Positions 28,105 through 46,996 of a DNA stretch of 64,000 nt are shown piece after piece. The stretch comes from Candidatus Latescibacterota bacterium (GTDB lineage Bacteria; Latescibacterota; UBA2968; UBA8231): positions 4,177,693 through 4,241,692 of the forward strand of contig CBDCDC010000002.1 in assembly GCA_965215195.1 (NCBI GenBank), read 5' to 3'. Numbering within the stretch: the stretch's first letter is position 1; the number at the start of each line of letters is the position of its first letter. The notes under the pieces are model-generated. The model did not search any database. It was not told where the DNA came from and was given only the letters and a program-made list of their open reading frames with translations. A program made the translations under genes and the position numbers.

Positions 28105-29943
28105 ATGCCGAAAGTTAGAATGTTCACAGTGGCCGCTTGGTTGGGCATCTGCGTCGCCGGCCATGCCGCTGCGGAGGAAGGGGCGTGGGAGGTGGTGGAG
28201 AAAATTCTCATGAGTACCAAGGATATCGTCGTACTCGACGGCACCGAAAAGGTGCCGCTGCGCTACGAGGGGGGAGCAGAGCCGACCCACGGCGACTGGA
28301 TGGTGCGCCACATGCTGTCCGATCCCGAAAAACTCAATCCGTACACCTCCAGCGATGCCGGTGCCAGCCGGGTGCTAGAGCTTATCTTTGAGAGCCTACT
28401 CGACACCGAGCATGAGCCGCCGTACAACCTGCGGGGTTGGGTGGCTGTCGGATATCCAGAGGTTGCGGCGGACAAACTCGCGTACACGTTTGAGTTGCGC
28501 GACGGGGTTTACTTCTCAGACGGCAAGCCGCTGACGGCCGCGGATGTCGTCTTCAGCATGAAGGTCATCCACAACCCCCAAGTGCTAGCGCCGCATCTGC
28601 GCAACTACTATGCTACCGTCCGAGACGTGCAGATCGTGGAGGCCAATAAGGTCCGCTTCCTTTGCCGCGAGCCTTATTTCCGCAATGACCTGATCTTGGG
28701 CGGCTTCTCCATTCTGCCCAAGCATTTCTACGACCCGGAGGGGCTGATGGAGCCGGTCGAGCTCAAGAGCTTGGTGGATGGCTCTTGGGAGGAGGGGCCT
28801 CACAAGGAACGGGTTGAGCGCTTTGCCGAACAGTTCAACCAAAATTTCAATCGCACGGCGCTTGGCTCGGGGCCGTACCGGATCGCAGATCCAGAGCGCG
28901 ATTTGGTCACCCAGCAGAAAGTCGTGCTGACGCGGAATGCAAACTACTGGGGTCGGGACGTGGAAGGGCTGCTGCCGCCCGGCTTTGTCGATAAGATCGT
29001 CTTTAACATCATCAACAATACCGACGCGGCATTCATCGAGTTGACCAACGGCAACCTCGATTACTACGCTCTGCGCCCGTTGCAATTTAAGGAAAAGAGC
29101 TGGTCGGAAGACTTCAATCGCCGCTTCCTCAAAGGCGTCAGCTACTCCAGCGGCTATATGTACATAGGGTGGAACAACAACCATCCGATCTTCGGCGACA
29201 AGCGGGTGCGCCAAGCCATGACCTATTTGACCGACCGCGAGGGCATGGTAGAGAACTTCATGTTCGGCTTGGCCGAGACGGTAGAGGGGCCGATTAACAA
29301 GTTTCGCCCGGAGTACAACCACGACCTCGCGCCGTACCCCTACGATCCCGACCGCGCCCTCGACCTGCTCGCGGAGGCTGGCTGGGAGGACGCCGATGAG
29401 GACGGCATTCTCGACAAGACCATCGACGGAGAGTTGGTGCCATTTCGCTTTGAGATCTTGGTCAACTCGGGCAACCAGATCCGCAAAGACATCGCCCTGA
29501 CGGTCCAATACGAGCTGCAAGATATCGGCATTGACTGCCAAGTGCGCGAGCTAGACTGGTCGATTTTCCTGCAAAAGGTCAAGAGCAAAGCTTTCGACGC
29601 CATGGTGTTGGGCTGGACCGGCAGCCTGCGCGTCGCACCCGACAGCTACCAGATCTGGCATTCTTCCCAGACCGTAGAGAACGGCTCCAACCACGTGAGC
29701 TTTATCAACGACGAAGTTGACAACATCTTGGAGACCTATCGCCGCGAGTTCGACATGGACAAGCGCATTGAGCTCTACCGCCGCTTTCAGGAGATCCTGT
29801 ACGCGGAACAGCCGTACACCTTCATGTGGAAATCGCGCTCGCCCCAAGCCTATAGCCGGCGCTTCAGTGGCGTCACTTGGTATCCCCCCGGCGTCCGCTT
29901 GCAGGACTGGTGGGTTGCGCGGGAAGAGCAGATGTACCAATAG
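28105..29943 (+). CDS. ABC transporter substrate-binding protein, family 5 (peptide/nickel, OppA/DppA-like)
   Basis: Signal peptide, 612 aa. Typical family-5 segments: YTFELRDGVYFSDGKPLTAADVVFS and GSGPYRI. SD AAAGGAG. Confidence 0.85.
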   Translation: MPKVRMFTVAAWLGICVAGHAAAEEGAWEVVEKILMSTKDIVVLDGTEKVPLRYEGGAEPTHGDWMVRHMLSDPEKLNPYTSSDAGASRVLELIFESLLDTEHEPPYNLRGWVAVGYPEVAADKLAYTFELRDGVYFSDGKPLTAADVVFSMKVIHNPQVLAPHLRNYYATVRDVQIVEANKVRFLCREPYFRNDLILGGFSILPKHFYDPEGLMEPVELKSLVDGSWEEGPHKERVERFAEQFNQNFNRTALGSGPYRIADPERDLVTQQKVVLTRNANYWGRDVEGLLPPGFVDKIVFNIINNTDAAFIELTNGNLDYYALRPLQFKEKSWSEDFNRRFLKGVSYSSGYMYIGWNNNHPIFGDKRVRQAMTYLTDREGMVENFMFGLAETVEGPINKFRPEYNHDLAPYPYDPDRALDLLAEAGWEDADEDGILDKTIDGELVPFRFEILVNSGNQIRKDIALTVQYELQDIGIDCQVRELDWSIFLQKVKSKAFDAMVLGWTGSLRVAPDSYQIWHSSQTVENGSNHVSFINDEVDNILETYRREFDMDKRIELYRRFQEILYAEQPYTFMWKSRSPQAYSRRFSGVTWYPPGVRLQDWWVAREEQMYQ

Positions 29944-29952
29944 GGCGCGTCC

Positions 29953-30369
29953 GTGTCCTCCGCAGACGCCCTCCGCTGGGAGAGCCACCCCCTGCGCCGG
30001 GAGAAGCCGGCCAAGTCCATGCTACTGGTCGCGCTCATCGTCGCTTCCGCAGCGGCTGCGGCCTTTGGCTTTGAGCATTGGTTTTACGGGGTGTTTTCAC
30101 TCGGAGCATTGACCGTCTCGCTGTCGCGCTATTTCTTCCCTACGCGCTACGCGCTCAACGGCGAGGGGGTCCGCAGCGAACACCTCGGCCTTAAACAGCG
30201 CCGTTCTTGGGCGGAATTCCGTCGAGTAGAAGAGCATCGGGACGGCATTTTTTTACGTCCGTCCGTCCGCCCAAGTCGGCTGGATTCCTTTCGCGGCGTT
30301 TTTTTGCGCTGCGATCAAAACCGCACAGAGGTTGCGCGTTTCGTCCGGTGCCATGTTCCGAGTCAATAG
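29953..30369 (+). CDS. Small 2-TM protein with a C-terminal PH-like (bPH-type) domain
   Basis: Hydrophobic MLLVALIVASAAAAAFGF and FYGVFSLGALTVSL, then YALNGEGVRSEHLGLKQRRSWAEFRRVEEHRDGIFLRP. GTG start 9 nt after the binding-protein stop. Confidence 0.55.
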   Translation: MSSADALRWESHPLRREKPAKSMLLVALIVASAAAAAFGFEHWFYGVFSLGALTVSLSRYFFPTRYALNGEGVRSEHLGLKQRRSWAEFRRVEEHRDGIFLRPSVRPSRLDSFRGVFLRCDQNRTEVARFVRCHVPSQ

Positions 30370-30688
30370 CTTAAAAGCGCGGTGGCGGCACGCTTTTGCC
30401 CTTGAAGATCCAGCGGCGGGTTGGTCTGAAGACGAGCGTGCGCTGGCCGAGCGGCTGGCCGAGTTTATAGTGCGCCGCCGCATGGGAGCGGCCGCGTCCA
30501 TGGCGTTGGAGGCTTGCCGCCCTCTCAACTTTTTGGGCAGCCAAGCCCTGACCTTTTTGGCCCCGTTTGCCACGCTGGTTTTTTCGCGCGACGAGTACCA
30601 GCGCTTTACGCGCATGTTGGAGCGACGCCAGTGCATAGATTTGCTCGCCGAGGCCATTGCCCGGCGCGAAAGCCAAAAGCATGGATGA
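30353..30688 (+). CDS. Small hypothetical protein (111 aa)
   Basis: The ORF overlaps both neighbours (17 nt and 8 nt), consistent with translational coupling. No recognisable family. Confidence 0.45.
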   Translation: MFRVNSLKARWRHAFALEDPAAGWSEDERALAERLAEFIVRRRMGAAASMALEACRPLNFLGSQALTFLAPFATLVFSRDEYQRFTRMLERRQCIDLLAEAIARRESQKHG

Positions 30689-32462
30689 CCTCAACGTAGT
30701 TATCGCCACGGACTGCGGCAGTACGACGACCAAGGCGATCCTGATCGAAAAGAAGGACGAAGGGTATCGCCAGACCTTTCGCGGCGAGGCCCCCACTACG
30801 GTGGAGGCCCCCTTTGAGGACGTCACCCGGGGGGTGCTCAACGCCATTCAAGAGGTTGAGGAGCTTTCCGGGCGGCAAATTCTCGCTGGCGAGCAGATCA
30901 TCACTCCGGCAGACGGCGCTGTCGGGGTCGATATGTACATCTCCACGAGCAGTGCCGGCGGCGGGTTGCAGATGGTAGTGGCCGGCGTGGTCTTGGCGAT
31001 GACTGGCGAGAGCGCACAGCGCTGCGCCTTGGGGGCCGGGGCAATTGTCATGGACGCGCTCGCTGCCAACGATGGGCGCTTGCCGCACGAGAAAATAGAG
31101 CGCATCCGCCAACTGCGCCCCGATATGGTGTTGCTGTCGGGCGGCACCGATGGCGGCACCGTCAGCCACGTGGTCGAGCTGGCCGAATTCATCAGCGCGG
31201 CCGATCCCAAGCCCCGCTTTGGCGCGGGCTTCAAGTTGCCGGTTATTTTTGCGGGCAATCAGAGCGCGTGCGAGGCGGTCAAAAAGGCGTTGGGAGGGAA
31301 GATGGCCCTGACCGTCGCCGAGAATATCCGCCCAGTGCTCGAAGAGGAAAACTTGGACCCGGCGCGGCGCGTCATTCACGACCTCTTCCTCGAACACGTC
31401 ATGGCGCAGGCACCTGGCTACCGCAAGCTGATGGGCTGGACCGGTGCGCCGATTATGCCGACGCCCGGGGCAGTGGGCGAGATCATGCAGACTATTGCCC
31501 GCCAGCAGGAGCTCAATGTCGTTGGCGTGGATATCGGCGGGGCGACGACCGATGTATTCAGCGTCTTCGATGGCGCGTTCAACCGCACGGTCAGTGCCAA
31601 TTTAGGCATGTCCTATAGCGTCTCCAACGTGCTGGCCGAGGCCGGGCTCGACCGCATCATGCGCTGGGTTCCTTTTGACATTGAGGAAGCCGACCTCCGC
31701 GACCGGATCAAAAACAAGATGATCCGCCCGACGACCATCCCGCAGCTCATGCAGGAACTGCAAGTTGAGCAAGCCATTGCCCGCGAGGCCCTGCGCCTGG
31801 CCTTTGAGCAACACCGGGCGTTGGCAGTGGGATTGAAGGGGGTGCAGAGCAAGCGCACGCTGGCCGATGTGTTTGAGCAGGGTGCCACCGGCGAGAGTTT
31901 AGTCGAGATGATGGCGCTGGACATGCTGGTCGGCAGCGGCGGCGTACTCTCGCACGCGCCCCGCCGCGAGCAGAGTTGCGCCATGCTCATAGATGCCTTC
32001 CAGCCCGAAGGCGTCACTCGCTTGGCGGTCGATAGCATCTTTATGATGCCCCACTTGGGGGTGCTCTCGACCGTTGACGAGCGGGCCGCGACCGAGGTTT
32101 TTGAGCGCGATTGCCTGATCTACTTGGGCACTTGTGTAGCTCCCGTCGGCGAGGGTAAGGACGGCGAGGTTTGCCTCCAGTACGAGATAGAACTGCCCAG
32201 CGGGCGTCAAACTGGCCAAGTACAGGTCGGCCAGCTACAGTGGATGCCCTTGGCCGATGGCGAGGAGGTCGAAGTCTCACTCCAGCCGGCGCGGCGTTGG
32301 GATGTGGGTGCTGGTCCGGGGCAAGCCCTAAACGCGCGGGTGCGCGGCGGGGTTGTAGGGCTAGTGCTGGACGGTCGCGGGCGGCCCATCCAGATGGCGA
32401 CAGACCGCGATCGCCAGCGGCAGATAAGCGACTGGCAGCGGGCGTTAAACCTATACGAGTAG
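30681..32462 (+). CDS. GlmL/MutL-like ASKHA-superfamily ATPase (593 aa), with no mutase partner present
   Basis: Phosphate-binding motifs ATDCGSTTTKAIL, LLSGGTDGG, GVDIGGATTDVFSV and LVGSGGVL, in the order seen in glutamate mutase L-type proteins. Confidence 0.7.
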   Translation: MDDLNVVIATDCGSTTTKAILIEKKDEGYRQTFRGEAPTTVEAPFEDVTRGVLNAIQEVEELSGRQILAGEQIITPADGAVGVDMYISTSSAGGGLQMVVAGVVLAMTGESAQRCALGAGAIVMDALAANDGRLPHEKIERIRQLRPDMVLLSGGTDGGTVSHVVELAEFISAADPKPRFGAGFKLPVIFAGNQSACEAVKKALGGKMALTVAENIRPVLEEENLDPARRVIHDLFLEHVMAQAPGYRKLMGWTGAPIMPTPGAVGEIMQTIARQQELNVVGVDIGGATTDVFSVFDGAFNRTVSANLGMSYSVSNVLAEAGLDRIMRWVPFDIEEADLRDRIKNKMIRPTTIPQLMQELQVEQAIAREALRLAFEQHRALAVGLKGVQSKRTLADVFEQGATGESLVEMMALDMLVGSGGVLSHAPRREQSCAMLIDAFQPEGVTRLAVDSIFMMPHLGVLSTVDERAATEVFERDCLIYLGTCVAPVGEGKDGEVCLQYEIELPSGRQTGQVQVGQLQWMPLADGEEVEVSLQPARRWDVGAGPGQALNARVRGGVVGLVLDGRGRPIQMATDRDRQRQISDWQRALNLYE

Positions 32463-32465
32463 CTC

Positions 32466-33581
32466 ATGGCCCACGCCTATACCCCTGGACTGCGCGTGAC
32501 GCAACACGCAGTCGTCCACAAAGAGCGGCGTTTGCCCCTCAAAGGCGAAGTTGTCGTCGAGCGCGGCCAAGCGGTGCGGCGAAACCAAGTCGTGGCCCGC
32601 ACCGAACTGCCGGGCGAGGTGGCAATCCTCAACTTGGTAAACCGCTTGGGCATCTCGCCGCAAGAGTTATCCGGCTATATGCTCAAAAAAGAGGGCGACC
32701 GCGTCGAAGCCGGCGAGCCGCTCGCCGAGACCAAGCCCTTTATTCGGTGGTTCAAGACCACGGTCGAAGCCCCGGTCAGCGGCACGGTCGAGAGCATTTC
32801 GCCGGTTACCGGGCAGGTGATGCTGCGCCAAGCCCCTAAGCCGGTCGAAGTGCTCGCTTACGTCGATGGGGTCGTCGAGGAAGTTTTTGCCGCGGAGGGC
32901 GTGCGCGTCGCAGCGCAAGGTGCGTATATCCAGGGCATTTTCGGCGTGGGGGGCGAGTGCTGGGGTGCGCTGCACTTGGCGGTTGCAGCCCCGGACGCCA
33001 TTGCCGGGCCGCTGGGCCCGGAAGTGGCGGGCAAAATCGCGGTGGTCGGTAGCCTGATTAGCGCGGAGACCGTGGAACAGGCCCGGCAGGCCGGGGCCGT
33101 GGGGTTGATCGGCGGCGGCCTGCGCGACCGCGACTTGCGCGACCTGCTCGGCCGCGATTTGGGCGTGGCCATCACCGGGACCGAGCAAATCGGCCTGACC
33201 GTGGTAGCTACCGAGGGCTTCGGCCGCGTCGCCATGGCCCGCAAGACCTTCGACATTCTGCGCGCCTGCGCCGGCATGGATGCGTCCATGGCCGGCGCGA
33301 CCCAGATCCGCGCTGGCGTATTGCGGCCGGAGATCATCGTTCCCACAGCCGCTGACAAAGAGGAAGAAGAGGTGCGGCCGAGTGCGGGCGGGTTGCAGGT
33401 GGGCGATTTGTTGCGGGTGATTCGGATGCCCTATTTTGGGCGCATTGGGCGCGTCAGCGACTTGCCGACCGAATTGTGCGCGGTGGAATCTGGGGCGCGG
33501 GTGCGGGTCTTGGCCGTGGAGTTTGAAGACGGGGAGCAGGCGGTAGTGCCGCGGGCAAATGTGGAGCTGATTGAGGAATAA
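32466..33581 (+). CDS. Soluble protein with barrel-sandwich (biotinyl/lipoyl-like) motifs and a KOW/SH3-like C-terminus, unknown function
   Basis: LPLKGEVVVERGQAV; KKEGDRVEAGEPLAE...VEAPVSGTVESI; glycine-rich GKIAVVGSL..AGAVGLIGGG; C-terminal VGDLLRVIRMPYFGRIGRV. Starts 3 nt after the ATPase stop. Confidence 0.6.
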   Translation: MAHAYTPGLRVTQHAVVHKERRLPLKGEVVVERGQAVRRNQVVARTELPGEVAILNLVNRLGISPQELSGYMLKKEGDRVEAGEPLAETKPFIRWFKTTVEAPVSGTVESISPVTGQVMLRQAPKPVEVLAYVDGVVEEVFAAEGVRVAAQGAYIQGIFGVGGECWGALHLAVAAPDAIAGPLGPEVAGKIAVVGSLISAETVEQARQAGAVGLIGGGLRDRDLRDLLGRDLGVAITGTEQIGLTVVATEGFGRVAMARKTFDILRACAGMDASMAGATQIRAGVLRPEIIVPTAADKEEEEVRPSAGGLQVGDLLRVIRMPYFGRIGRVSDLPTELCAVESGARVRVLAVEFEDGEQAVVPRANVELIEE

Positions 33582-33585
33582 AGGT

Positions 33586-34830
33586 ATGAGAGCAAAAAGC
33601 TGGCTGGCTGCATTCGTCTTGGCTTGGCCGTTGGCGAGCGCGGCGGAGAATGCGGAACAGGGGCTTGGCGCGTTGCTGGCACCCCCTAGGCCGCCGATTG
33701 AGGTGCAAGCCTTTGACACGCCCAATGACGACGGGGGCAGCATTACGCTGACTTGGCCGCGAGATCGTCAGATCAGTGAAAATGCGATGTATCAGGTCGC
33801 CATTGCCGACTCGCCCAGCGGGCCTTTTCGCGTCGCGGCCGAGGTTGCGGCAACGGAGAATTTGATGTCCGAGGCACCGGCCCTCTTTGGGCACGGGGAT
33901 GATCTGGAGAATCACCACTATGTCAACGTTGAGGAATTCGCCGGCGCGAGCGGCAAGGTGCCGTTAGAAGACGGCAAGACGTATTACTTTCACGTGGATG
34001 TGCGGTCGGCCGGGGGCGCGATCCGCGGCAAGGTGATCGTCAACGCCGAGTCGGCCGGCAATTTTTTTAATCGCGCCAAGACCAACAATCTGATGTTGTG
34101 CCTCGTGTTTTCAGGGCTAATCATGGGCTACATTGGCATCGCACGGCGGCGCGCGCTCAAAATTCGCCGCATCGCCGGACTAGAGGCGCTCGACGAGGCG
34201 CTGGGGCGGGCGACCGAGATGGGCAAGCCGGTGCTCTTCATCCACGGCCTGCGCGGCATGGACTCGATATCGACTATTGCCGCGGTCAATATCTTGGGCC
34301 GGGTCGCGCGGCGCACGGCCGAGTACGAGACCGCGCTGCGGGTGGTGGCCCCAGACCCGGTGGTCATGTCCGTGAGTCAGGAGACGATGAAGGCATCTTA
34401 TGTGGAGGCCGGCCGGCCCCACGACTTCAACCCGGAGCACGTGTTCGTCGCTAGTACCGATCAGTTCAGCTATGCGGCGGCGGTTGAAGGCATCATGGTG
34501 CGCGAGCGGCCGGCGGCTCACATTATGATGGGGTACTTCTACGCTGAGTCCCTGCTGTTGGCCGAGACGGGTTCGACGACCGGGGCGATCCAGATCGCCG
34601 GTACGGACGCCTTCACCCAACTGCCTTTTTTTATTACGACTTGCGATTATACCCTACTCGGCGAAGAGCTGTACGCGGCCAGTGCCTATCTGTCGGGTGA
34701 GCCGCGAATGCTGGGCACGCTCAAGGGCCAGGACATGAGCAAGGCCATTATTTTGATCGTTTTGGTGGTGGGCACGATCTTAGCGACATTGGGGATGCCG
34801 CAATTCGCACACGTGTTCGCCCCGTACTGA
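33586..34830 (+). CDS. Membrane protein (414 aa): signal peptide, Fn3-like exposed N-domain, TM helix, soluble domain, C-terminal TM helix
   Basis: MRAKSWLAAFVLAWPLASA; IEVQAFDTPNDDGGSITLTWP; TM helices LMLCLVFSGLIMGYIGI and AIILIVLVVGTILATL. Confidence 0.6.
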   Translation: MRAKSWLAAFVLAWPLASAAENAEQGLGALLAPPRPPIEVQAFDTPNDDGGSITLTWPRDRQISENAMYQVAIADSPSGPFRVAAEVAATENLMSEAPALFGHGDDLENHHYVNVEEFAGASGKVPLEDGKTYYFHVDVRSAGGAIRGKVIVNAESAGNFFNRAKTNNLMLCLVFSGLIMGYIGIARRRALKIRRIAGLEALDEALGRATEMGKPVLFIHGLRGMDSISTIAAVNILGRVARRTAEYETALRVVAPDPVVMSVSQETMKASYVEAGRPHDFNPEHVFVASTDQFSYAAAVEGIMVRERPAAHIMMGYFYAESLLLAETGSTTGAIQIAGTDAFTQLPFFITTCDYTLLGEELYAASAYLSGEPRMLGTLKGQDMSKAIILIVLVVGTILATLGMPQFAHVFAPY

Positions 34831-34839
34831 GGAGATGCC

Positions 34840-35496
34840 ATGTTGTTTTTCAGCCGCACCCTACCACTGGCTGTCGCCTTTGTCTTTGGTTTGCTGGGCA
34901 TTGCCATTTACTACATACCGCACAGCTATGCCCAGAGCTTTGAGCGGGAGATGTCGCTGTGGGTGCGGATCATTTTTGCTTTTTCCTACCTCCTCGGGCT
35001 GTACAGCTTACTCAACCTGCACTGGCAGCGCATCCGCCAGCAGGTCGCCGGCTGGGGGTATAGCTTCGTGGCGATTGTCAGCTTTGCGGTGATGATGGTC
35101 TTCGTGGCGTACAACGACGGGGCCGGTCCGTTTGCTCCGCAAGCCGGAGCCGGGGCCTACAAGTGGATGTTCGACTACATTCACTTCCCCTGCGCCGCCA
35201 CCATGTTCTCGATCTTGGCCTTCTTCATTGCGTCGGCGGCCTACCGGACCTTCCGCGCCCGTACGCCCGAAGCCGCCTTGTTGCTCGTCGCCGCCGTGAT
35301 CGTCATGTTGGGCCGGGTGCCCATTGGCCGGGAGATCTCCGAGTATTTTCCGCTGGTGAGCGAGTGGCTGATGAGCGTACCGAATTTAGCAGCCAAGCGC
35401 GGCATCCTGCTTGGGGTATCCCTAGGGGCCATTGCAACCTCGCTGCGGATCATCTTCGGTATTGAGCGTTCGTACTTGGGAGGGGGAGACAAGTGA
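34840..35496 (+). CDS. Polytopic membrane protein (218 aa), unknown function
   Basis: Five to six hydrophobic helices. SD GGAG upstream. Confidence 0.6.
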   Translation: MLFFSRTLPLAVAFVFGLLGIAIYYIPHSYAQSFEREMSLWVRIIFAFSYLLGLYSLLNLHWQRIRQQVAGWGYSFVAIVSFAVMMVFVAYNDGAGPFAPQAGAGAYKWMFDYIHFPCAATMFSILAFFIASAAYRTFRARTPEAALLLVAAVIVMLGRVPIGREISEYFPLVSEWLMSVPNLAAKRGILLGVSLGAIATSLRIIFGIERSYLGGGDK

Positions 35497-36311
35497 TGCA
35501 GATAGATCGCCGCATCCTCTTCGCCTTGATGTTTCTCGGAGTGGCCGTGCCGCTCTTGGTGGGGCTAGACCTGCCGATCACGCCGTCCAAGCGGGTGAGA
35601 GCGGCTTACGACCGGATTGAGCAACTTGCCGCCGGGCAGGTCGTCTTAGTCTCCTTCTCCTACGGCGCCAGTACAGCTCCTGAGATGCAGCCCATGGCGC
35701 GGGCGATTTTGCGCCACGCCTTCCGCCGCGACCTCAAGGTGGTTGCCATTTGCCTGTGGCCGGAAGCGACCGGCTTGGCCCAGGAGGTGCTCGACGAGAT
35801 GGCGGCTGAATTCGACTTGGAGTACGGGGTGGATTACACCTTTATGGGCTACAAGCCGGGCAATTTTAGCGTCATTCTCAATATGGGGCACGACATGCAC
35901 GGCACCTTTCCACAGGACAATTGGGGCGCCGGTGTTGGCACTTTGGAATTGATGCGGAATTTGCGCTCGCTGAGGGATTTCGATCTCGTCTTTGACTTGG
36001 GGGCCGGAGATTCGATTGAGTTTTGGTGGATTCCCTACGGGCAGGAGAAATACGGCTTTCCCTTTGCCGCCGGCTGCACCGCGGTGATGGCCCCGGATCT
36101 CTACCCCTTCCTCGGCTCGGGCCAACTCGTGGGTCTGCTCGGGGGCTTGGCCGGTGCAGCCGACTACGAGGTCCTGATTGATCACCGCGATGAGGCGAAC
36201 AAGAGCATGTCTCCCCAGTCGGTGACGCACTTGATCATTGTCGTCTTCGTGATTTTTGGCAATATCGCCTACTTCGTCGGTCGGCGGGGCCGATCGCAGC
36301 AGGAGAGCTAA
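35493..36311 (+). CDS. Bitopic membrane protein (272 aa) with a central soluble domain, unknown function
   Basis: GTGA start/stop overlap with the preceding gene. N-terminal TM ILFALMFLGVAVPLLVGL and C-terminal TM LIIVVFVIFGNIAYFVG. Confidence 0.6.
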   Translation: MMQIDRRILFALMFLGVAVPLLVGLDLPITPSKRVRAAYDRIEQLAAGQVVLVSFSYGASTAPEMQPMARAILRHAFRRDLKVVAICLWPEATGLAQEVLDEMAAEFDLEYGVDYTFMGYKPGNFSVILNMGHDMHGTFPQDNWGAGVGTLELMRNLRSLRDFDLVFDLGAGDSIEFWWIPYGQEKYGFPFAAGCTAVMAPDLYPFLGSGQLVGLLGGLAGAADYEVLIDHRDEANKSMSPQSVTHLIIVVFVIFGNIAYFVGRRGRSQQES

Positions 36312-36314
36312 GCC

Positions 36315-37028
36315 GTGCGCGATACCTATATCTTTCTGGGTTTGCTCCTGCTGTTTGCGGCCGTCAACATCGGCTTAGTGGCCAGCGGCACCTTGGCGGC
36401 GGATTGGACGGGTTTCGGCGTCATCGTCGCCGCGGGAATGACCTTGGCGCTCTACAGCTTCCTCTACAAGGACAACCCGCTCTTCAAATTTGCCGAGCAC
36501 GTCTTCGTCGGCGTGGCAGCGGCCTACGTATTCGGCCAGTACTGGTATCCGACGCTTTACGGCGAGCTCATCGCCGAATGGACCGATCCGGGGGAAGGGG
36601 AGTCGCCCGATTGGTGGCTGTTGGCCCCGACGGCGCTCGGGCTTTTGATGTTGACGCGCTTTTCGCTGCGCTTTGGTTGGCTCAGCCGCTATGCTTTTGC
36701 ATTTTTCGTGGGGTTGAGTGCCGGCCTGACGATTCCCCGCTATATTTCTTCTTTTATTTTGGCCCAAGTTGAACCTACATTACAACCACTAACTGGGAGC
36801 TGGGAGGGACTCAATTTGCTGATCGTCCTAGTGGGGGTCGTCGGGGTGTTGGTTTATTTCTTCTTTTCCGTTGAGCACACTGGCGCGGCCGGCCACATCT
36901 CCAAGGTGGGGATATGGTTTTTGATGGTCTCGTTTGGGGCTTCGTTTGGTTACACTATTATGGCGAGGGTCTCGCTGTTGATCGGGCGCGCGACCTTTCT
37001 CTTAGAAGATTGGCTGCACCTGATGTAG
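36315..37028 (+). CDS. Polytopic membrane protein (237 aa), unknown function
   Basis: GTG start 3 nt after the preceding stop. About six hydrophobic helices. Confidence 0.55.
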   Translation: MRDTYIFLGLLLLFAAVNIGLVASGTLAADWTGFGVIVAAGMTLALYSFLYKDNPLFKFAEHVFVGVAAAYVFGQYWYPTLYGELIAEWTDPGEGESPDWWLLAPTALGLLMLTRFSLRFGWLSRYAFAFFVGLSAGLTIPRYISSFILAQVEPTLQPLTGSWEGLNLLIVLVGVVGVLVYFFFSVEHTGAAGHISKVGIWFLMVSFGASFGYTIMARVSLLIGRATFLLEDWLHLM

Positions 37029-37062
37029 CGATATTGAGAACTACCCTACAAAGGAGGGATAT

Positions 37063-40000
37063 ATGACCAAGTTTGCAGGCGTTTTTCGCGCCCTGATTGC
37101 ACTTGGCGTCTTGCTCGCGCTGAGCTTGGCTCCGGCCGAGGCCAGCACCGGCGGCAAGATCGCCGGTGTAGTAAAGGATGCCACCACCGGGGATGGGCTG
37201 CCCCATGCCAATGTCGTGGTGGTGGATGCCAAGCTGGGGACCACGGCGGACGAAAGGGGCCGCTTTTTTATTCTCAACGTGCCGGCGGGCACCTACACCC
37301 TCAAGGTCACGTATATCGGCTACGCGGATTATACGGTCGAGGATGTGCGGGTTTCCGCCGACCTGACCACGAATCTCGACATCGACCTGACTTCTTCGGA
37401 TATCCAAGTCGAGGAGGTGATAATTCGCGCCGAGCGGCCTATTATCGACAAGACCGCCACGAATGCGGTGCGCATTGTCGGGGCCGAGGACATAGAGATT
37501 CTGCCGTTCAGAGGCGTTGGCCAAGTCTTGTCCCTGCAGGCTGGCGTGGTCGAAGACGAGGGTGCGCTGCACATCCGCGGCTCGCGCAGCGACGAAATTG
37601 GCTATTACGTTGATGGGGCCAGCGTCCGCAACATAATCACCGGCAGCAGTGCTGTGGCCCTGATCGACGAAGCCCTAGAGGAAATTCAGCTACAGGCCGG
37701 CGGCTTCAACGCCGAGTACGGCGGGGCCAACGCCGGCATCGTCTTGCAGGAACTGCGCACCGGAGGCAGCGATTGGGACTTCAAGGTCGTCGCCGAGTCG
37801 GACAATTTCACTTCCGACTTTGAGGAGCGCTTCGGCTCGTACTCATACGGCTATTCCAACCAAGTGGTCACGGCCGGCGGCCCGGTCGCGGGCAACCAAA
37901 ATATCCGCGCCTTTCTCGCCGGTCAGCGGTTGAGCCGGGACTACCGACCGACCTTCTGGTCGGGGTTTGAGTTCGAGGATCTGGTCGATACGGGCAACCG
38001 CCAAGGCCGCGTACATTGGGAAAAGGACGAGGAGGGCAATCCCATCCCAGACGCGGTCGAGCGGCTGGAAGTGAAACCGGGCAATATCCCGCACACCGGC
38101 AGCGAGTTCCTCGGCTTTAACAGCACCCTGCACTTCAACTACAATCCCATCCAGTTCCGGGTCACGGGCCTGCACTCCACCGGGGACCGCGATCTCAACA
38201 TCAATCCCATCAAAAACATCCTCAATCAAGAACGCCTCAACGAGCAGACGTACTCTTCGAGCTTGGTCAACGTAAAGGCCATCCACTTGCTCGACCCGAG
38301 CCTGTTCTACGAAATGAACGTCAGCTTCTACGGTCAGGGGCGCGAGAGTTTCGACGGGGTGTTCAAAGAGCGTTGGTGGGTTTACAACGACAGCGTGGCC
38401 GTCCAGCGCGCCTTGGAAGGCGGCCTGGAGTACACCCCTTATACGGCCAACGGATCGATACCCGAGCCTTACGACCTGAGCGGGTTTCCGTTCAACCGCC
38501 CGGGGTCGCCTACCAATTCTGCGTCCGGGAACAGCACGGGCGCTTGGTACGCCAAGGAAGAGGATCGCTATTGGGGCTTGGCCGGCAGCATTACCAAGCA
38601 GACCGCGGTCCATCAACTCAAGGCCGGCTTTGACTACCAGATGTGGACGTCGCGCCGCTACGCCATCTTCAACGGATCCATTCGCTCGCGTATCGCAGCG
38701 ACATATCCCAAGCTAGACGAAGTGTATCAGCGGTACTACAGCGACGCGCTCAACGAGGGCGAAATTCTCGACGAGCTGATCGAGACTGCCAAGGGCCTGC
38801 CCGATGACGAAGGTAGCCTCGAGGACCTCAAGAAGTCCCTACGCCTCAGTTCTGGCGACTTCTATGGCTACGACGAATTCGGCCGCTCCATCGACTCGTC
38901 GGACGACCCGCTGCAAGACCCGCGCAAGCCCGTGGTCGGCTCGGCCTACGTCCAAGACAAGATCGAATACAACGATCTGATCATCAACGCCGGGCTGCGC
39001 TTGGATTACTTTGATGCGGCGAGTTGGCGCTTTGTCGATCAATCGGCGCCGAAGATAGACAAAGACGCACGCACCATAGTAATCGCAGACACGACCGGCA
39101 CGTACATGGAGAAGACGCCTACATACGCGGAGATCAGCCCGCGCTTGGGCTTTTCGTTCCCGGTGTCGGACCTGACGGTCTTCCACGTGCAGTACGGGCG
39201 CTTCTCGCAGATGCCGCGGATGCGCGATATGTTCACCGGCGGTGCGCGGCTGGCCATCGAGTTGGGTGGGCAAAACTTCATTCCCACGCCCACGGCCTTT
39301 GACGTCGAGCCGGTGCGCACGACCCAATACGAGATCGGCTTTGAGCGTCAGTTCGCCGATTTTGCCTCGTTTGACGTGACGAGTTTTTACCGCGACATCA
39401 AGGGCCAGCTCCAGATCAGGCGTCAAGATGTGTCGGCCGGGAACGCCGGTTCGTTTACGTACTTGCAGAACGGCGATTTCGCCACGACCAAGGGCATTGA
39501 GTTCCAGTTCAAGGTGCGGCGGTTCAACCGCTTGCAGGCCGAGTTGAACTACACGCTGTCCGACGCACGCGGCACGGGTTCGACCCTGATATCGGCGCAG
39601 TCGGGCGTGGAGAACGACACCACCGTGCCGACGATCATCTCCCCGCTCGACTTCAACCAGACGCACCGCGGCTCTTTGTTCTTGGACTACCGCTTTGCCG
39701 ACAACGAGGCGAACCCGCTTCTCCGCAGCTTGGGGGCCAACCTGTTAGCGCGCTTTGCCAGCGGCTACAGCTTCACGCTGGTGGAGGGTTCCATCGGCCA
39801 GCGCGGGCCGGAAGAAGGCGGCATCCTCGCCAGCGACGACCCGCGCTCGCGCAAGCCGGTTGAGTCCATCAATCGCTCTTCGACGCCCTGGACTTTTCAG
39901 ACGGACTTGCGGATTGACAAGGGCTTTTCGCTCATGGGGGTCAATGCCCAGATTTACACGTACGTGCAGAACCTGTTCAACCGCCAGAACGTAATTAACG

Positions 40001-40212
40001 TGTACGGCCGGACCGGCAACGACAAGGACGACGGCTTTTTGACGAACCCGGACTTGAGCCAGCAGATCGTCGAGGCCAGCGGCGGTTGGGAGTACCAGCA
40101 GCTCTACGAGGCGATCAACTTGCTCAACCGCCAGCACTACTGGTCCACCGAGGGCGGCGACATCTACGACTCACCGCGGCAGATCCGCTTCGGGCTACAA
40201 TTCGACTTCTAG
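37063..40212 (+). CDS. TonB-dependent receptor-like outer-membrane protein with an N-terminal CarboxypepD_reg domain
   Basis: GKIAGVVKDATTGDGLPHANVVV...GTYTLKVTYIGY; plug motif LHIRGSRSDEIGYYVDGASV; C-terminal RQIRFGLQFDF. SD AAAGGAGGG. Confidence 0.85.
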   Translation: MTKFAGVFRALIALGVLLALSLAPAEASTGGKIAGVVKDATTGDGLPHANVVVVDAKLGTTADERGRFFILNVPAGTYTLKVTYIGYADYTVEDVRVSADLTTNLDIDLTSSDIQVEEVIIRAERPIIDKTATNAVRIVGAEDIEILPFRGVGQVLSLQAGVVEDEGALHIRGSRSDEIGYYVDGASVRNIITGSSAVALIDEALEEIQLQAGGFNAEYGGANAGIVLQELRTGGSDWDFKVVAESDNFTSDFEERFGSYSYGYSNQVVTAGGPVAGNQNIRAFLAGQRLSRDYRPTFWSGFEFEDLVDTGNRQGRVHWEKDEEGNPIPDAVERLEVKPGNIPHTGSEFLGFNSTLHFNYNPIQFRVTGLHSTGDRDLNINPIKNILNQERLNEQTYSSSLVNVKAIHLLDPSLFYEMNVSFYGQGRESFDGVFKERWWVYNDSVAVQRALEGGLEYTPYTANGSIPEPYDLSGFPFNRPGSPTNSASGNSTGAWYAKEEDRYWGLAGSITKQTAVHQLKAGFDYQMWTSRRYAIFNGSIRSRIAATYPKLDEVYQRYYSDALNEGEILDELIETAKGLPDDEGSLEDLKKSLRLSSGDFYGYDEFGRSIDSSDDPLQDPRKPVVGSAYVQDKIEYNDLIINAGLRLDYFDAASWRFVDQSAPKIDKDARTIVIADTTGTYMEKTPTYAEISPRLGFSFPVSDLTVFHVQYGRFSQMPRMRDMFTGGARLAIELGGQNFIPTPTAFDVEPVRTTQYEIGFERQFADFASFDVTSFYRDIKGQLQIRRQDVSAGNAGSFTYLQNGDFATTKGIEFQFKVRRFNRLQAELNYTLSDARGTGSTLISAQSGVENDTTVPTIISPLDFNQTHRGSLFLDYRFADNEANPLLRSLGANLLARFASGYSFTLVEGSIGQRGPEEGGILASDDPRSRKPVESINRSSTPWTFQTDLRIDKGFSLMGVNAQIYTYVQNLFNRQNVINVYGRTGNDKDDGFLTNPDLSQQIVEASGGWEYQQLYEAINLLNRQHYWSTEGGDIYDSPRQIRFGLQFDF

Positions 40213-40237
40213 CCGCTTAAAAGCGAGGAAGCACACC

Positions 40238-43200
40238 ATGCGAAAACTCATTTTTGGATATATAGCTGCGGCTGGGCTGGCAATCGGCCCGGCCGAGGCG
40301 CGCGAGCCGTTCTACGGCCGTGCAGCCAAATCCCTCCAAGAGGAGGCCGTTGAGATCTCGACCGATCGGACGATGCTCAACATCAACAACATGGCGATGT
40401 GGATTCTGAGCGATGGCGAGTCGGCTCACAACCCGATCAGCGGTAGCGCGGGCGTGACTTTTCCGCGCTCGACCGACCAAGTCATCTTTCAGGACGGACT
40501 GATTTGGGGCGGGCGGGTCATTGACGGCAACCCGCAGGAGTTGCGAGTCGGCGGCCAGACTTATGCCGTTGGCACGGTCCCGGGTGTCATTGAGTCGAGG
40601 GGGGTGGCCCAAGACCGCGATACAGCGCGCCTGTACCGAATTCGTCGCGACTATGCGACCGCTGATTTGCGGCTCGACGCCTCCGAGATCCTCAACAAGC
40701 GCCTGAGCGAAGTCACCGACGCCGATGAGGAGGCCGTGCGCACCCAATACGAGCGCGACTGGATGGAGTGGCCAGCCGAGTTGGGCGCGCCCTTTTACGA
40801 TAACGACGGAAACGGGCAGTACGACCCCGCAGTTGACGAGCCGGGGCTGGCCAATGCCGACCAAGTGATCTGGTTAGCCATCAACGACTTGGACCCAGGG
40901 GCTGTCGCCAGTCTCTATGGCTCCTTACCGATTGGCATGGAGACGCAGGTGACGCTGTGGGGTTACGCCCGCACGGACGCGCTGGGCGACGCGATTTTCA
41001 AGAAGTACAAGGTCATTTACAAGGGCACCGAGAGCACGCCGGACACGGCGCGCATTGAGGACATGTACTTGGCCCAATGGTCCGATCCCGACTTGGGCGA
41101 CTTTGGCGACGACTTTGCCGGCGCCGATGTCGATCTGAGCTTGGGCTACGTCTACAACTCGATTGACGACGACTCGCACTACGTGAATTTTGAATTGGCC
41201 CCGCCGGCCGCGGGCTACGATTTTTTGCAAGGCCCAGTCGTGCCGGTGTACCTACTCGACGAGGAGGGTAATGTCGCCGTAGATGAGGAAGGCAACTCCC
41301 TGCTCGACGAGAGCTCGGTGGCGATCTTCAACGACGGCATGAGGCCCGGTTACAAGAACTTGCCGATGACCGCTTTCGTGTACTTCGCGGCTGGTTCGTC
41401 GATTAGTGACCCGGACTTGAACGAGTACGACGGCACCTTGCAGTGGTACAACCTGCTGCAAGGCTTCCAGCCGCAGGCCGACATTGAAAATCCCGTGCCC
41501 TACACCAATCCCCTGACCAACGAGGATACCAAGTTCACGCTCGACGGCGACCCAACGCGGGCCACTGGCTGGAACGACGGAATCCCATTGCCGGCCGGCG
41601 ATCGGCGCATCGTAATGGCGACCGGCCCGTTTGAGATGGCATTGGGTGACACGCAAGAAGTGGTGGTCGCACTCTTGGGCGCGAGCAGCACCGACCGCTT
41701 GCGCAGCGTCTCCAAGCTCAAGTTTACCGACCAGTTCGTGCAGGACGCGTACAACAGCTTCTTTCAGGTTCCCAAGCCGCCGGTCCGGCCCAATGTTCGC
41801 CTAATTGAGCTGGATCAGACCATCGTACTCAACTGGGGTTGGGACCCAGAGTCGGTGTCTAAGACCGAAGGCGTGGGTTCGCCCGGTTTTGATTTTGAAG
41901 GCTATAACGTCTATCAATTGCCTTCAGCCGAGGCCACGCTGAGCCAAGGCACTAGGGTCGCCACTTTTGATTTAGTCAACGGCGTGACGACCATATTGGG
42001 GATCGCTCTCGACGAGCAGTCCGGCGTGGTGCTGGACGTGCCTTTGCAGATCGGCAATGACAGCGGCCTCCAGCGCTATATCGCCCTGAGCCACGACGCG
42101 TTGCGCGGCGGCCCGCTGGTCAACGGCCAGCAGTACTATTTCACAGTGACCGCCTACAACCGCGCCACTTCGGAAGATGCGGCCACGACCACCACCCTAG
42201 AAAGCAGCCCGCAGACCATCACTTGTGTGCCGCAAATCGCGCCGCCGGGTATCACGCGCACCCATGAGGACCCCGGGGATACGCTGTCTGTCGAACACAC
42301 CAAGGGCATCGGCGACGCCAGCGTATGGCCGCTGGTGATCGATCCTACGGCCCTGCAGCAGGCCACCTACAAGGTCACCTTCAACGACGACGCGACTTGG
42401 AGTCTGTCGCGGGACGGGGAGAGGATAGTCGACCGGGAGAGCAACATTTCCCTCGACGAGAGCTATCCCATCGTCGAAGGCCTCCAAGTGAAGGTGGGCG
42501 ATCTGGTCTTCACCCATCCGACGACCTACATCCGTTCCAAAGTGACCAACGACGCCAACTTAGACGATGGCCCCCTCAGCCTTTGGGGCGACGGTACGCT
42601 CTTCGGCTTTGCCGACGGCTATGGCTCAACTTTCTGGGACGGCGGCGGCGCTGGGGACAATCGGCTGGTGCGCGATATTGAGTTCCGCTTCACCGGCGTG
42701 TGGAACGCCGATTCGACCGCAATTGCCGAGGGCGGCTCAATTGCGACCCTCGGTGGCGTCAGTGCCGGCAGCGGCGAGCGCGACATCGCGGCGCATCCCT
42801 TCAAGCCCGCCGAGGTGTCGGATTCGACCGGTGCCTTCCTCCAGCGCGTGCCCTTTGAGGTTTGGGACGTGGAGGATCCGGACAATCCGCGCCAGTTGAA
42901 CGCCGTGTTTTACGACCGCGGTGCCGACGGGTCCAGAGACGAAGGCAGCGTTGTCTATCACCAGACTTACAACATGCCGGGTCGCGACTATATCACCATC
43001 GTCCACACCGACTACGATCCGACCAAGATCCACGAGTTGACGGACGAGAACACCACGTGGGTTTACTTCTTCACGCAGGGAGGTTCTTCGGTCTGGTCGA
43101 CGGGCGACGTACTAAGGATTACCATCGGCAATACCGTAGTGGCCGGTGAGGACGAGTTTGAGTTCAAGGTGACGGCCGAGACGTACTCCGAAGCCTTGGC

Positions 43201-43528
43201 CAAGGAAAGCGTCAAAAAGATCAACGTCTTTCCCAATCCCTACCTCGGCGTCAATTCGGCCGAGACCAGCCGCTACAACCACTTCGTGACCTTCAGCCAC
43301 CTGCCGCCCAAGGCGAATATCCGCATCTTCGACATGAGCGGCACGCTGGTGCGCACCATTGAGAAAGACGATCCGGCGCAATTTATGCGCTGGGATCTGC
43401 AAAACCACAACGAACTGCCGGTGGCCAGCGGCATGTACATCGCCCATATCGAGTTGCCGGAAACCGGCATGAGTCGGATTCTCAAGCTGGCCGTCATCCA
43501 AGAGCAGCAGTTTTTGGAAAACTTCTAG
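40238..43528 (+). CDS. Large secreted protein (1096 aa) with Fn3-like segments and a T9SS C-terminal sorting domain
   Basis: Signal peptide. YYFTVTAYN Fn3-like signature. C-terminal about 80 aa INVFPNPYLG...IRIFDMSGTLVRTIE...GMYIAHIEL...ILKLAVIQ is typical of the Por secretion tail. Confidence 0.75.
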   Translation: MRKLIFGYIAAAGLAIGPAEAREPFYGRAAKSLQEEAVEISTDRTMLNINNMAMWILSDGESAHNPISGSAGVTFPRSTDQVIFQDGLIWGGRVIDGNPQELRVGGQTYAVGTVPGVIESRGVAQDRDTARLYRIRRDYATADLRLDASEILNKRLSEVTDADEEAVRTQYERDWMEWPAELGAPFYDNDGNGQYDPAVDEPGLANADQVIWLAINDLDPGAVASLYGSLPIGMETQVTLWGYARTDALGDAIFKKYKVIYKGTESTPDTARIEDMYLAQWSDPDLGDFGDDFAGADVDLSLGYVYNSIDDDSHYVNFELAPPAAGYDFLQGPVVPVYLLDEEGNVAVDEEGNSLLDESSVAIFNDGMRPGYKNLPMTAFVYFAAGSSISDPDLNEYDGTLQWYNLLQGFQPQADIENPVPYTNPLTNEDTKFTLDGDPTRATGWNDGIPLPAGDRRIVMATGPFEMALGDTQEVVVALLGASSTDRLRSVSKLKFTDQFVQDAYNSFFQVPKPPVRPNVRLIELDQTIVLNWGWDPESVSKTEGVGSPGFDFEGYNVYQLPSAEATLSQGTRVATFDLVNGVTTILGIALDEQSGVVLDVPLQIGNDSGLQRYIALSHDALRGGPLVNGQQYYFTVTAYNRATSEDAATTTTLESSPQTITCVPQIAPPGITRTHEDPGDTLSVEHTKGIGDASVWPLVIDPTALQQATYKVTFNDDATWSLSRDGERIVDRESNISLDESYPIVEGLQVKVGDLVFTHPTTYIRSKVTNDANLDDGPLSLWGDGTLFGFADGYGSTFWDGGGAGDNRLVRDIEFRFTGVWNADSTAIAEGGSIATLGGVSAGSGERDIAAHPFKPAEVSDSTGAFLQRVPFEVWDVEDPDNPRQLNAVFYDRGADGSRDEGSVVYHQTYNMPGRDYITIVHTDYDPTKIHELTDENTTWVYFFTQGGSSVWSTGDVLRITIGNTVVAGEDEFEFKVTAETYSEALAKESVKKINVFPNPYLGVNSAETSRYNHFVTFSHLPPKANIRIFDMSGTLVRTIEKDDPAQFMRWDLQNHNELPVASGMYIAHIELPETGMSRILKLAVIQEQQFLENF

Positions 43529-43550
43529 GGGAGAAACAGGAGGCCATTCC

Positions 43551-44585
43551 ATGATTCGACACAAGCTTAGCATCTCGACGATCCTGCTGGCGCTGGTTTT
43601 CGCCTCGGCTGCGGCCTTTGCCGATGGCTATGATCGCGCCGGTACGGCCGCGGCCCCGGAACTGCTGATTCCGGTTGGCGCACGCGACATGGCCTTGGGC
43701 GGTGCCTCAATCGCCACCAGTTCCGGTCTGGAAGCCCTACACTGGAACCCGGCAGGTCTGTCCAAGTCCGAATCCAACGCGGGCATCATGTTCTCGACGA
43801 TGTCCTATCTGGCGGATACCCGCATCAACTATCTGGCCACCGGTGCCAACTTCAAGAACCTCGGCTCGCTGGCCCTCAACATCAAGGCCCTAGATTTCGG
43901 CGAAATCCCGGTGACAACCGAGGCCAATCCCGACGGCACCGGCGCGACCTATTCGCCGACCTTTTTCACCTTGGGCCTGACCTTCGCACGGGAACTGACC
44001 GATCGCATCGCCGTCGGGATTACCAGCCATTATGTCGTCAACCGCATCCAGCGCGTCGAGGCCACTGCGACCTCGCTGAGTGCCGGTCTGCAATACGCCA
44101 ATCTGGGCGGAATTGCCGGCTTGGACTTGGGGGTGGCGCTCAAGCACATCGGTACGCAGATGCAGTTTGAAGGGTCCGGCCTGTTGCGCCGCGGTCAGAT
44201 CGACGGGTTGCGCCGCGGCCCCTCTGATTACAATGTACAGGCTAGCGCGGCCGACCTGCCCTCGACGTTTGAACTCGGTTTGAGCTACCGCTACACGCCC
44301 GCTGGTCTGGGCGCGGTCAACTTGTCCTCGGTCTTCCGGCACAACAACTTCGCCTACGACCAGTACCGGTTGGGCGCTGAGTATCTGTTGAGCGATTTCT
44401 TCGCCGTGCGCGCTGGCTTCGACTACGCGCCCAACTCGACCGACGACTACATCTACGGCACCAGCTTCGGCTTTGGTATGAATCTGGAGGCCGGGACGCT
44501 CGAGGATTTGCGCGTTGATTACGCCTACACTACGGTCGACTATTTCGACGCGCTCAATACTTTCACCTTTCAGTTCGGTTTTTGA
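43551..44585 (+). CDS. PorV/PorQ-family outer-membrane beta-barrel protein
   Basis: AAPELLIPVGARDMALGGASIATSSGLEALHWNPAGL matches the PorV-family N-terminal signature. Ends in the barrel-type TFTFQFGF. Confidence 0.7.
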   Translation: MIRHKLSISTILLALVFASAAAFADGYDRAGTAAAPELLIPVGARDMALGGASIATSSGLEALHWNPAGLSKSESNAGIMFSTMSYLADTRINYLATGANFKNLGSLALNIKALDFGEIPVTTEANPDGTGATYSPTFFTLGLTFARELTDRIAVGITSHYVVNRIQRVEATATSLSAGLQYANLGGIAGLDLGVALKHIGTQMQFEGSGLLRRGQIDGLRRGPSDYNVQASAADLPSTFELGLSYRYTPAGLGAVNLSSVFRHNNFAYDQYRLGAEYLLSDFFAVRAGFDYAPNSTDDYIYGTSFGFGMNLEAGTLEDLRVDYAYTTVDYFDALNTFTFQFGF

Positions 44586-44590
44586 AATTA

Positions 44591-46995: not shown

Positions 46996-46996
46996 C

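Follow-up and report, generated by a model that had tools for sequence, protein, structure and literature searches.

We found that eight plus-strand genes, here called g1 to g8, lie at 29953-37028 of a stretch of 64,000 nucleotides from a Candidatus Latescibacterota bacterium (assembly GCA_965215195.1, contig CBDCDC010000002.1; the whole stretch is hereafter the window), and that they contain a module, conserved across five phyla, in which an ATPase of the ASKHA superfamily (g3) and two companions (g2 and g4) accompany four membrane proteins (g5-g8). We propose, with a probability of about 0.4, that g1-g8 code for a single inner-membrane machine in two parts, of a so far undescribed kind. Equally tentatively, it would be the first recognized member of a new class of inner-membrane machines, powered by a GlmL-type ASKHA ATPase and not by an ABC, AAA+, P-loop or proton-motive-force motor, with a four-protein core made up wholly of undescribed families, present in at least five phyla (carriers include Nitrospira, anammox bacteria and Methylomirabilis) and wired to cyclic di-GMP (c-di-GMP) in some lineages.

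Conservation was assessed by scanning one genome per species, which returned at least 545 stretches with a relative of DUF6754, the family of g5; the best 80 of these loci were taken with 10-kb flanks, and genes were counted at each locus by tblastn with the window proteins (note that some of the non-colinear loci end at a contig edge). Gene order was kept from g3 to g8 in 55 and from g5 to g8 in 75 of the 80 loci, which indicates that the module is not a product of chance. The closest homologs of the window proteins came from Candidatus Latescibacterota, where g3-g8 were colinear in 23 and g5-g8 in all 25 loci; the corresponding counts were 18 and 21 of 21 loci in Nitrospirota, 5 and 5 of 6 in Gemmatimonadota, 2 and 2 of 3 in Methylomirabilota, 4 and 17 of 20 in Planctomycetota, and 3 and 5 of the 5 unclassified or other loci. 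Median identity to the Nitrospirota orthologs was highest for g3 (69%), followed by g4 (52%), g8 (51%), g5 (48%), g6 and g7 (45% each) and g2 (39%). When every open reading frame (ORF) of the 80 loci was clustered all against all, g2-g8 were the only genes common to different phyla. An earlier interpretation of this DNA, the sequence-only reading, had described an eight-gene unit; a real, conserved module is borne out, in which g1 is a lineage-restricted accessory, confined to Latescibacterota and Gemmatimonadota apart from two Planctomycetota loci.

The module falls into two parts. Brocadia, Kuenenia and some other Planctomycetota carry g5-g8 alone at the locus, and in Brocadia g2-g3-g4 sit at a second locus (L083/L084), while Scalindua and Anammoxibacter have both gene sets contiguous. 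At another planctomycetotal locus (MAG219, L053:3570-10089), g5-g6-g7-g8 are present in two tandem copies, the first of which encodes a g5 of only 295 amino acids (aa) and therefore almost no periplasmic domain. The Brocadia split and the tandem duplication together suggest that g2-g4 (cytoplasmic) and g5-g8 (membrane) are separate evolutionary units that are kept in the same genomes; linkage of g3 is constant to g4, and extends to g5-g8 in 55/80 loci. The earlier description of the module holds, but this split, the PilZ fusions and the interleaving with oligopeptide-importer (Opp) genes reported below were absent from it. At L083:13201-15273, g2-g3-g4 of Brocadia are followed by a gene for a 690-aa protein with no Pfam family, many 'YGDDV'-type repeats and C-terminal hydrophobic segments, which may be a lineage-specific partner.

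The putative motor, g3, matches PF13941 (MutL/GlmL) over profile positions 1-450 (E=9.4e-127, 423.9 bits). Four motifs that had been read from its translation (ATDCGSTTTK, LLSGGTDGG, GVDIGGATTD and LVGSGGVL) are present and invariant in 21 orthologs from five phyla, and its phosphate-1, phosphate-2 and adenosine motifs are likewise intact and invariant. Mean column identity in the alignment of these orthologs is 74% over ~600 residues, and g3 is the slowest-evolving gene of the set (65-80% identity between phyla); a level of 74% is typical of interaction-rich (mechanochemical) ATPases and unusual for small-molecule enzymes. Beyond the ASKHA fold, g3 carries an extra, family-specific, beta-rich tail of ~110 aa at its C-terminus. 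Neither single-sequence nor profile searches returned a relative of g3 in the PDB. What looks like a g3-g4 fusion ORF in L059 was dismissed as an artefact: its two tblastn matches sit in different frames, in GC-rich DNA that happens to leave a frame open.

We predicted g4 to be cytoplasmic from its sequence, in which no hydrophobic segment, transmembrane (TM) helix or signal peptide was found. Its AlphaFold2 (AF2) model (predicted local distance difference test score, pLDDT, 85.5) comprises, from the N-terminus, a barrel-sandwich hybrid (aa ~8-121), a small beta-barrel (125-171), an alpha/beta domain (180-295), a disordered or flexible linker and a KOW/SH3-like barrel tail (313-368); of the domains read earlier from the translation, the barrel-sandwich hybrid and the KOW-like tail are recovered, but the two lipoyl-like motifs collapse into a single hybrid. 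g4 passes the Pfam gathering scores of RnfC_N (29.1 bits vs. 25.6) and Biotin_lipoyl (PF00364; 27.3 bits vs. 22.1, aa 72-116), and falls short of that of NQRA_N (22.0 bits vs. 25). Foldseek against the PDB returned domain-level matches only (Spt5/NusG KOW, PetP and the biotin carrier BCCP), with a TM-score (query) of ≤0.15, and no whole-chain match. In a hidden Markov model (HMM) alignment with the lipoyl domain of pyruvate dehydrogenase E2, Trp95 sits in the lipoyl-lysine column; the hairpin has a 2-residue insertion that shifts the conserved Lys97 by +2 from this column, and the modifiable lysine at the hairpin tip (E-x-D-K-A or A-M-K-M) is absent from g4, so a swinging-arm cofactor is unlikely. 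A gene of the lipoate/biotin ligase family adjoins the cluster in L081 and lies close by in L085; we judged this to be coincidence, because the L085 ligase belongs to a set of glycine-cleavage genes and g4 has no canonical lysine, and lipoylation or biotinylation of g4 was accordingly rejected.

Some g4 orthologs (P0192 and P0209, the latter at L081:10001-11425) begin with a PilZ domain (E=1.5e-14) inside otherwise identical g1-g8 clusters, which may point to c-di-GMP input in some lineages; the g4 of the window itself has no PilZ. With PilZ directly before the barrel-sandwich hybrid and beta-barrel of g4, they resemble the Alg44-type c-di-GMP receptors of synthase-dependent exopolysaccharide secretion, in which PilZ is fused to a barrel-hybrid domain like that of membrane fusion proteins. 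However, g4 differs from these receptors in having no TM helix or signal peptide, and its cluster has no conserved glycosyltransferase or outer-membrane porin. Nor does g4 resemble the HlyD/AcrA membrane fusion proteins: it has no signal peptide, lipobox or TM anchor that would put it in the periplasm, its model shows just a pair of short helices (aa 57-71) where the alpha-helical hairpin would be, and it matches HlyD_3 and RND_mfp only at E >0.1. In two Brocadiia genomes, an HD_5 (HD-GYP-like) gene lies directly 3' of g4 on the opposite strand, beside glmS (L086:13583-14254 and L087:12990-13667), a second, weak hint of cyclic-di-GMP signaling.

Among the membrane proteins, g5 is the one with a named family: aa 163-415, at the C-terminus, cover positions 3-256 of the 257 of PF20539 (DUF6754; E=5e-111, 370 bits vs. 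a cut-off of 27). The topologies of g5-g8 were predicted from hydropathy and the positive-inside rule. A signal peptide is followed in g5 by a periplasmic Fn3/Ig-like sandwich (aa ~40-160), a TM helix, a highly conserved cytoplasmic domain of ~200 aa and alpha/beta type, and a C-terminal TM helix; the conserved domain is placed in the cytoplasm because the signal peptide appears cleavable and basic residues follow TM1. The signal peptide and Fn3-like N-domain described earlier were thereby confirmed, the Fn3 fold with AF2 and Foldseek. In a profile search of 1.84 billion representatives, the DUF6754 family comprised 2,553 clusters at 50% identity, in which the core is always C-terminal and the preceding periplasmic part varies from ~100 to >1000 aa, containing Fn3 repeats in one case and HEAT repeats in another.

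Hydropathy also upheld the remaining membrane assignments, with g5 and g7 bitopic around a soluble domain and g6 and g8 polytopic. g6 has ~6 hydrophobic segments; its basic loop AAYRTFRAR is invariant, and a GIERSY motif lies at the C-terminus. Its 28 orthologs gave no consistent Pfam match and its profile no PDB match. g7 consists of an N-terminal TM helix, a ~215-aa domain of alpha/beta type and a C-terminal TM helix, and the domain is predicted to be periplasmic because basic residues precede TM1 and follow TM2; its profile had only marginal PDB matches, and those to the neurexin LNS domain were treated as chance. g8 carries the motifs SFLYKDNP and SVEH(K/T)G and its profile found nothing in the PDB; the window g8 itself has no family, and a 30-residue DUF3704 motif, weakly matched by 17/28 g8 orthologs, was the only recurrent weak Pfam match across the g6, g7 and g8 ortholog sets. 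At the sensitivity of hhalign, neither g5 and g7 nor g6 and g8 are paralogs (probability 0.5% for each pair), and for g3-g8 taken together the PDB searches gave nothing better than E ~0.003. Of the two small leading proteins, g2 is soluble by hydropathy, lies always directly 5' of g3 and, judged by eye from 19 aligned orthologs, appears all-helical; a P-x6-Q-x6-P segment of moderate hydrophobicity is conserved in it, as is an LER motif, and g2 may serve the ATPase as a partner or a membrane tether. By hydropathy, aa 22-60 of g1 form a hydrophobic segment at the N-terminal side, ahead of a soluble C-domain of ~75 aa. No Pfam or NCBIfam family matched g1, g2, g6 or g7.

We reasoned that these parts could work as follows. 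g5, g6, g7 and g8 would form a membrane core that shows the Fn3-like domain of g5 and the alpha/beta domain of g7 to the periplasm and the DUF6754 domain to the cytoplasm, where g2, g3 and g4 would dock as the cytoplasmic part. On binding and hydrolyzing ATP, g3 would then switch conformation and thereby drive or gate the core, a mode for which the ASKHA reactivases and Hsp70, with their nucleotide-driven opening of a partner protein, would be the precedent, and c-di-GMP would tune the switch step in lineages with a PilZ-g4. The machine's most likely task would be to move or assemble, across or at the inner membrane, some component of the envelope or surface. The gene content, the domain folds, the conservation, the two sub-modules and the intact ATPase motifs are observed, while in this scheme we infer complex formation, the docking of g3 and g4 on the cytoplasmic domain of g5, the way in which energy flows and the role in the envelope.

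Several points weigh against this proposal. The physical complex is a deduction, and the DUF6754 core of g5 (aa 189-382) stays at pLDDT <50 in an AF2 model built with 55 homologs of 58-94% identity. g3 passes the Pfam gathering score of Hydantoinase_A (25.3 vs. 22.9), so that an enzyme phosphorylating a substrate would fit in place of a switch, and its identity across phyla could come in part from horizontal transfer. The envelope-biogenesis genes that adjoin the module in several phyla (see below) are common housekeeping genes. Finally, the conserved neighbors of the module in the 80 loci include no gene for a glycosyltransferase, polymerase, secretin, pilin or substrate, and so nothing points to what would be moved.

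The Hydantoinase_A match leads to an alternative that we regard as unlikely, namely a membrane-anchored ATP-dependent enzyme or ion pump, in which g3 would phosphorylate a small substrate like its hydantoinase, oxoprolinase and acetone-carboxylase relatives, g4 would be a swinging-arm or NqrA/RnfC-like peripheral subunit, and g5-g8 would link that reaction to the passage of ions or solutes. g3 also nearly reaches the gathering score of Hydant_A_N; the RnfC_N, Biotin_lipoyl and weak NQRA_N scores of g4 fit such a role. g4 resembles NqrA/RnfC in having a barrel-sandwich hybrid followed by an alpha/beta domain, in a soluble subunit encoded beside small polytopic proteins, and g5 and g7 have predicted beta-alpha repeats with invariant residues after the strands (by eye), as in ligand-binding alpha/beta folds. 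However, HyuB-type partners were not matched, and Pfam and NCBIfam searches of g3-g8 returned no Rnf-Nqr, NqrB/RnfD, FMN_bind, 4Fe-4S or NADH/FMN family, so that the flavin, Fe-S and NADH domains of Nqr/Rnf have no counterpart in the module; the same Rnf/Nqr families were absent from 28 g6, 25 g7 and 28 g8 orthologs even at E up to 5. The tryptophan in the lipoyl/biotinyl lysine position of g4, with Lys97 two residues off, also argues against a swinging arm, KOW tails and fusions to PilZ are not features of Nqr/Rnf, and PilZ control with a hypervariable Fn3/HEAT periplasmic arm would be odd for a metabolic enzyme. An accessory role in nutrient uptake, with the module as sensor, regulator or energizer of an Opp-type importer (here also of a SusC-like receptor and type IX secretion system, T9SS, cargo) in peptide or oligomer scavenging, seems improbable to us: Opp genes do stand directly beside or inside the module in ~24/31 Latescibacterota and Gemmatimonadota loci, and a substrate-binding protein (SBP) gene stops 9 nt before g1, but neither Opp genes nor a TonB-dependent receptor or T9SS gene accompany the module in Nitrospirota, Methylomirabilota or Planctomycetota, and a link so lineage-specific cannot define the core function.

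The ASKHA fold of g3, its very high conservation, which recalls cytomotive proteins, and the dedicated membrane platform with small partner proteins might instead be read as a membrane-anchored cytoskeletal or positioning system, in which g3 polymerizes and g4-g8 anchor the filaments. We hold this to be distinctly improbable, as the superfamily branch that holds MutL/GlmL, EutA and the reactivases is classed with the non-polymerizing enzymes (PMC5597319) and the matches of g3 to the MreB, FtsA, ParM, PilM and MamK families are marginal at best. The PilM-PilN-PilO and GspL-GspM platforms of type IV pili and type II secretion likewise share with g1-g8 a cytoplasmic actin-fold protein and bitopic inner-membrane proteins with periplasmic domains; they differ in that g1-g8 give no PilM/GspL match, and neither g1-g8 nor the conserved neighbors include a hexameric secretion ATPase, pilins, a prepilin peptidase or a secretin. 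That g3 is instead a true B12-mutase accessory or reactivase (GlmL) which merely happens to lie among membrane genes of other function, while the genome encodes its mutase at another site, we consider very improbable, despite the strong PF13941 match and public annotations of its orthologs as 'glutamate mutase L', 'methylaspartate mutase' or 'reactivating factor for D-ornithine aminomutase'. Like GlmL/MutL of glutamate (methylaspartate) mutase and Or-4 of the D-ornithine aminomutase operons, g3 matches PF13941 over ~470 residues with the same ASKHA motif order, but it scores far under the curated NCBIfam cut-offs (GlmL, NF040745/TIGR01319, 229.7 vs. 475; Or-4, 212.2 vs. 600; glmL_fam, 157.7 vs. 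204), bears the additional C-terminal domain, and sits beside g2 and g4 (usually also g5-g8) and never beside B12 mutase genes. No mutase-like gene occurred among the conserved neighbors of the 80 loci or in the Pfam-annotated contexts L081 and L083-L087; in the window, where a part of the ORFs was scanned, no glmS/glmE-like mutase gene was met, and a cobalamin riboswitch is likewise missing. g3 is thus, as first described, a GlmL/MutL-family ASKHA protein without mutase partners, and cut-off scores and gene context argue that the mutase labels are probably wrong for its subfamily. A parallel in size is that of DdrA and DdrB, an ASKHA ATPase of ~600 aa paired with a ~110-aa protein, to which g3 and g2 correspond and whose proposed mode, nucleotide-driven partner opening, is the same; the difference from DdrAB/GdrAB and EutA is that g3 and g2 have no DDR or Dehydratase_MU match (EutA is marginal, E=0.09), that g2 is seemingly all-helical, and that the presumed client here is a membrane complex and not a soluble enzyme.

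Other identities were sought for the two-part machine as a whole. A defense system was rejected, as none of the eight proteins matched a PADLOC model at E up to 0.1, and a mobile element was set aside, since the DUF6754 core is without any plasmid match. Literature searches on DUF6754/PF20539, PF13941/TIGR01319, DUF3704, GlmL in Nitrospira and ornithine aminomutase in anammox returned nothing relevant, and the recognizable domains (ASKHA, barrel-sandwich hybrid, KOW, Fn3 and PilZ) are all generic. Every known system compared with the module differed from it in some defining trait, g5-g8 being covered by Pfam, NCBIfam and PDB profile searches. This agrees with the initial impression that no described machine matches, which Pfam, NCBIfam, PADLOC, PDB profile, Foldseek and literature searches sustained. 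The membrane subunits fell into no known family, gene order proved conserved, and neither scores nor neighbors place g3 with the mutase reactivases; these three outcomes, on points that the sequence-only reading had named as possible refutations, speak for the module.

If the proposal is correct, an actin/Hsp70-fold ATPase of the 'B12-reactivase' branch would have been recruited to drive a membrane complex, with an energy coupling unlike that of any described transport, secretion or assembly system. The module is common (DUF6754 alone forms ~2,550 clusters at 50% identity), and its carriers include key players in the cycling of nitrogen and methane (Nitrospira, Brocadia, Kuenenia, Scalindua and Methylomirabilis) as well as abundant uncultured Latescibacterota and Gemmatimonadota. 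Its function, once defined, would give roles to five orphan protein families, and it would correct metabolic reconstructions that deduce glutamate fermentation from g3.

All eight plus-strand ORFs and their junctions were found again as first reported (Table 1). g1/g2 and g2/g3 overlap by 17 and 8 nt, respectively, and g6/g7 by a GTGA at 35493-35496; the gaps are 3 nt (g3/g4), 4 nt (g4/g5), 9 nt (g5/g6) and 3 nt (g7/g8), and the ATG starts of g2 (30353), g3 (30681) and g5 (33586) agree with the N-termini of homologs. The junctions stand, but they do not mark the borders of the module, as close spacing runs on past both ends, with an SBP_bac_5 gene stopping 9 nt before g1 and a plus-strand run from 28105 to 48040 in which all gaps are ≤34 nt. 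Neither border has a terminator-like site, and Rfam places no riboswitch or other RNA element at the module. Because spacing alone sets no limit, we took the module borders from comparative conservation.

Table 1. Features of the window, with positions counted from its first nucleotide.
Feature	Position	Strand	Description
g1	29953-30369	+	138 aa; small membrane protein, lineage-restricted accessory
g2	30353-30688	+	111 aa from ATG; 118 aa from TTG 30332; helical
g3	30681-32462	+	593 aa from ATG; 601 aa from TTG 30657; ASKHA ATPase, PF13941
g4	32466-33581	+	371 aa; soluble, multi-domain adaptor
g5	33586-34830	+	414 aa; DUF6754 (PF20539), bitopic
g6	34840-35496	+	218 aa; polytopic membrane protein
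g7	35493-36311	+	272 aa; bitopic
g8	36315-37028	+	237 aa; polytopic membrane protein
SBP_bac_5	28105-29943	+	SBP of Opp/Dpp/Nik-type importer
Receptor	37063-40212	+	TonB-dependent receptor, SusC/RagA-like
OppB, OppC	45700-48040	+	OppB- and OppC-like permeases
ORFs in low-GC segment	3405-4163, 4173-5078, 5099-6229	-	no NCBIfam family
HlyD-type gene	18966-20252		apparent HlyD-type adaptor (by eye)
Fic-motif ORF	20654-22057	-	HPFxDGNGRxxR in translation (by eye only)
RNA cluster	52180-52763		three tRNAs and SRP RNA

Directly 3' of the module lies the receptor gene, followed by a gene whose 1096-aa product bears a T9SS type A sorting tail, with a score that only just reaches the cut-off, and by one for a PorV/PorQ-family protein (149 bits vs. 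90); this layout (37063-44585) resembles a polysaccharide utilization locus with T9SS cargo. However, no more than 9-10 loci, all close relatives, have receptor, cargo and PorV genes 3' of the module, and none was found beside it in Nitrospirota, Planctomycetota or Methylomirabilota. The sequence-only reading had argued for an envelope role from the position directly upstream of outer-membrane genes, an argument that falls with the lineage-specificity of these neighbors: with outer-membrane genes limited to close relatives, an 'envelope machine' would follow from architecture and not from context. Neighbors elsewhere vary and are often envelope-biogenesis genes (lpxK, lipid A acyltransferase, glmS, AsmA-like, M48 protease, dapF and fab genes), and their recurrence in several phyla is a weak hint of an envelope role.

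An importer of the Opp/Dpp/Nik ABC type is split around the module in the window, with the SBP gene upstream and the permease genes 8.7 kb downstream; no OppD/F ATPase gene was found among the window ORFs scanned with Pfam, several large ORFs lying outside that scan. The Latescibacterota and Gemmatimonadota loci show three arrangements of such genes. The window type runs SBP, g1-8 and, further on, OppB and OppC; the L016 type runs fab-rnc, module, OppD, OppF and a PD40 peptidase; and at L012:2607-8800 the order is g1-3, SBP, OppB, a DUF772 transposase (insertion sequence), OppC, g4-8, OppD, OppF and a PD40/Tricorn-like peptidase.

Elsewhere in the window, a segment at 4001-6000 has a GC content of 0.44 vs. 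~0.61 elsewhere and overlaps three minus-strand ORFs (Table 1); it may be a foreign island. The ORF with the Fic motif adjoins the apparent HlyD-type adaptor gene and two ORFs of the size of resistance-nodulation-division transporters (~1,050-1,100 aa; by eye). The only Rfam matches in the window lie far downstream of the module, in one cluster just upstream of dnaX: tRNA-Ser(cga), tRNA-Ser(gga), tRNA-Ala(cgc) and a large-type bacterial signal recognition particle (SRP) RNA (169 bits).

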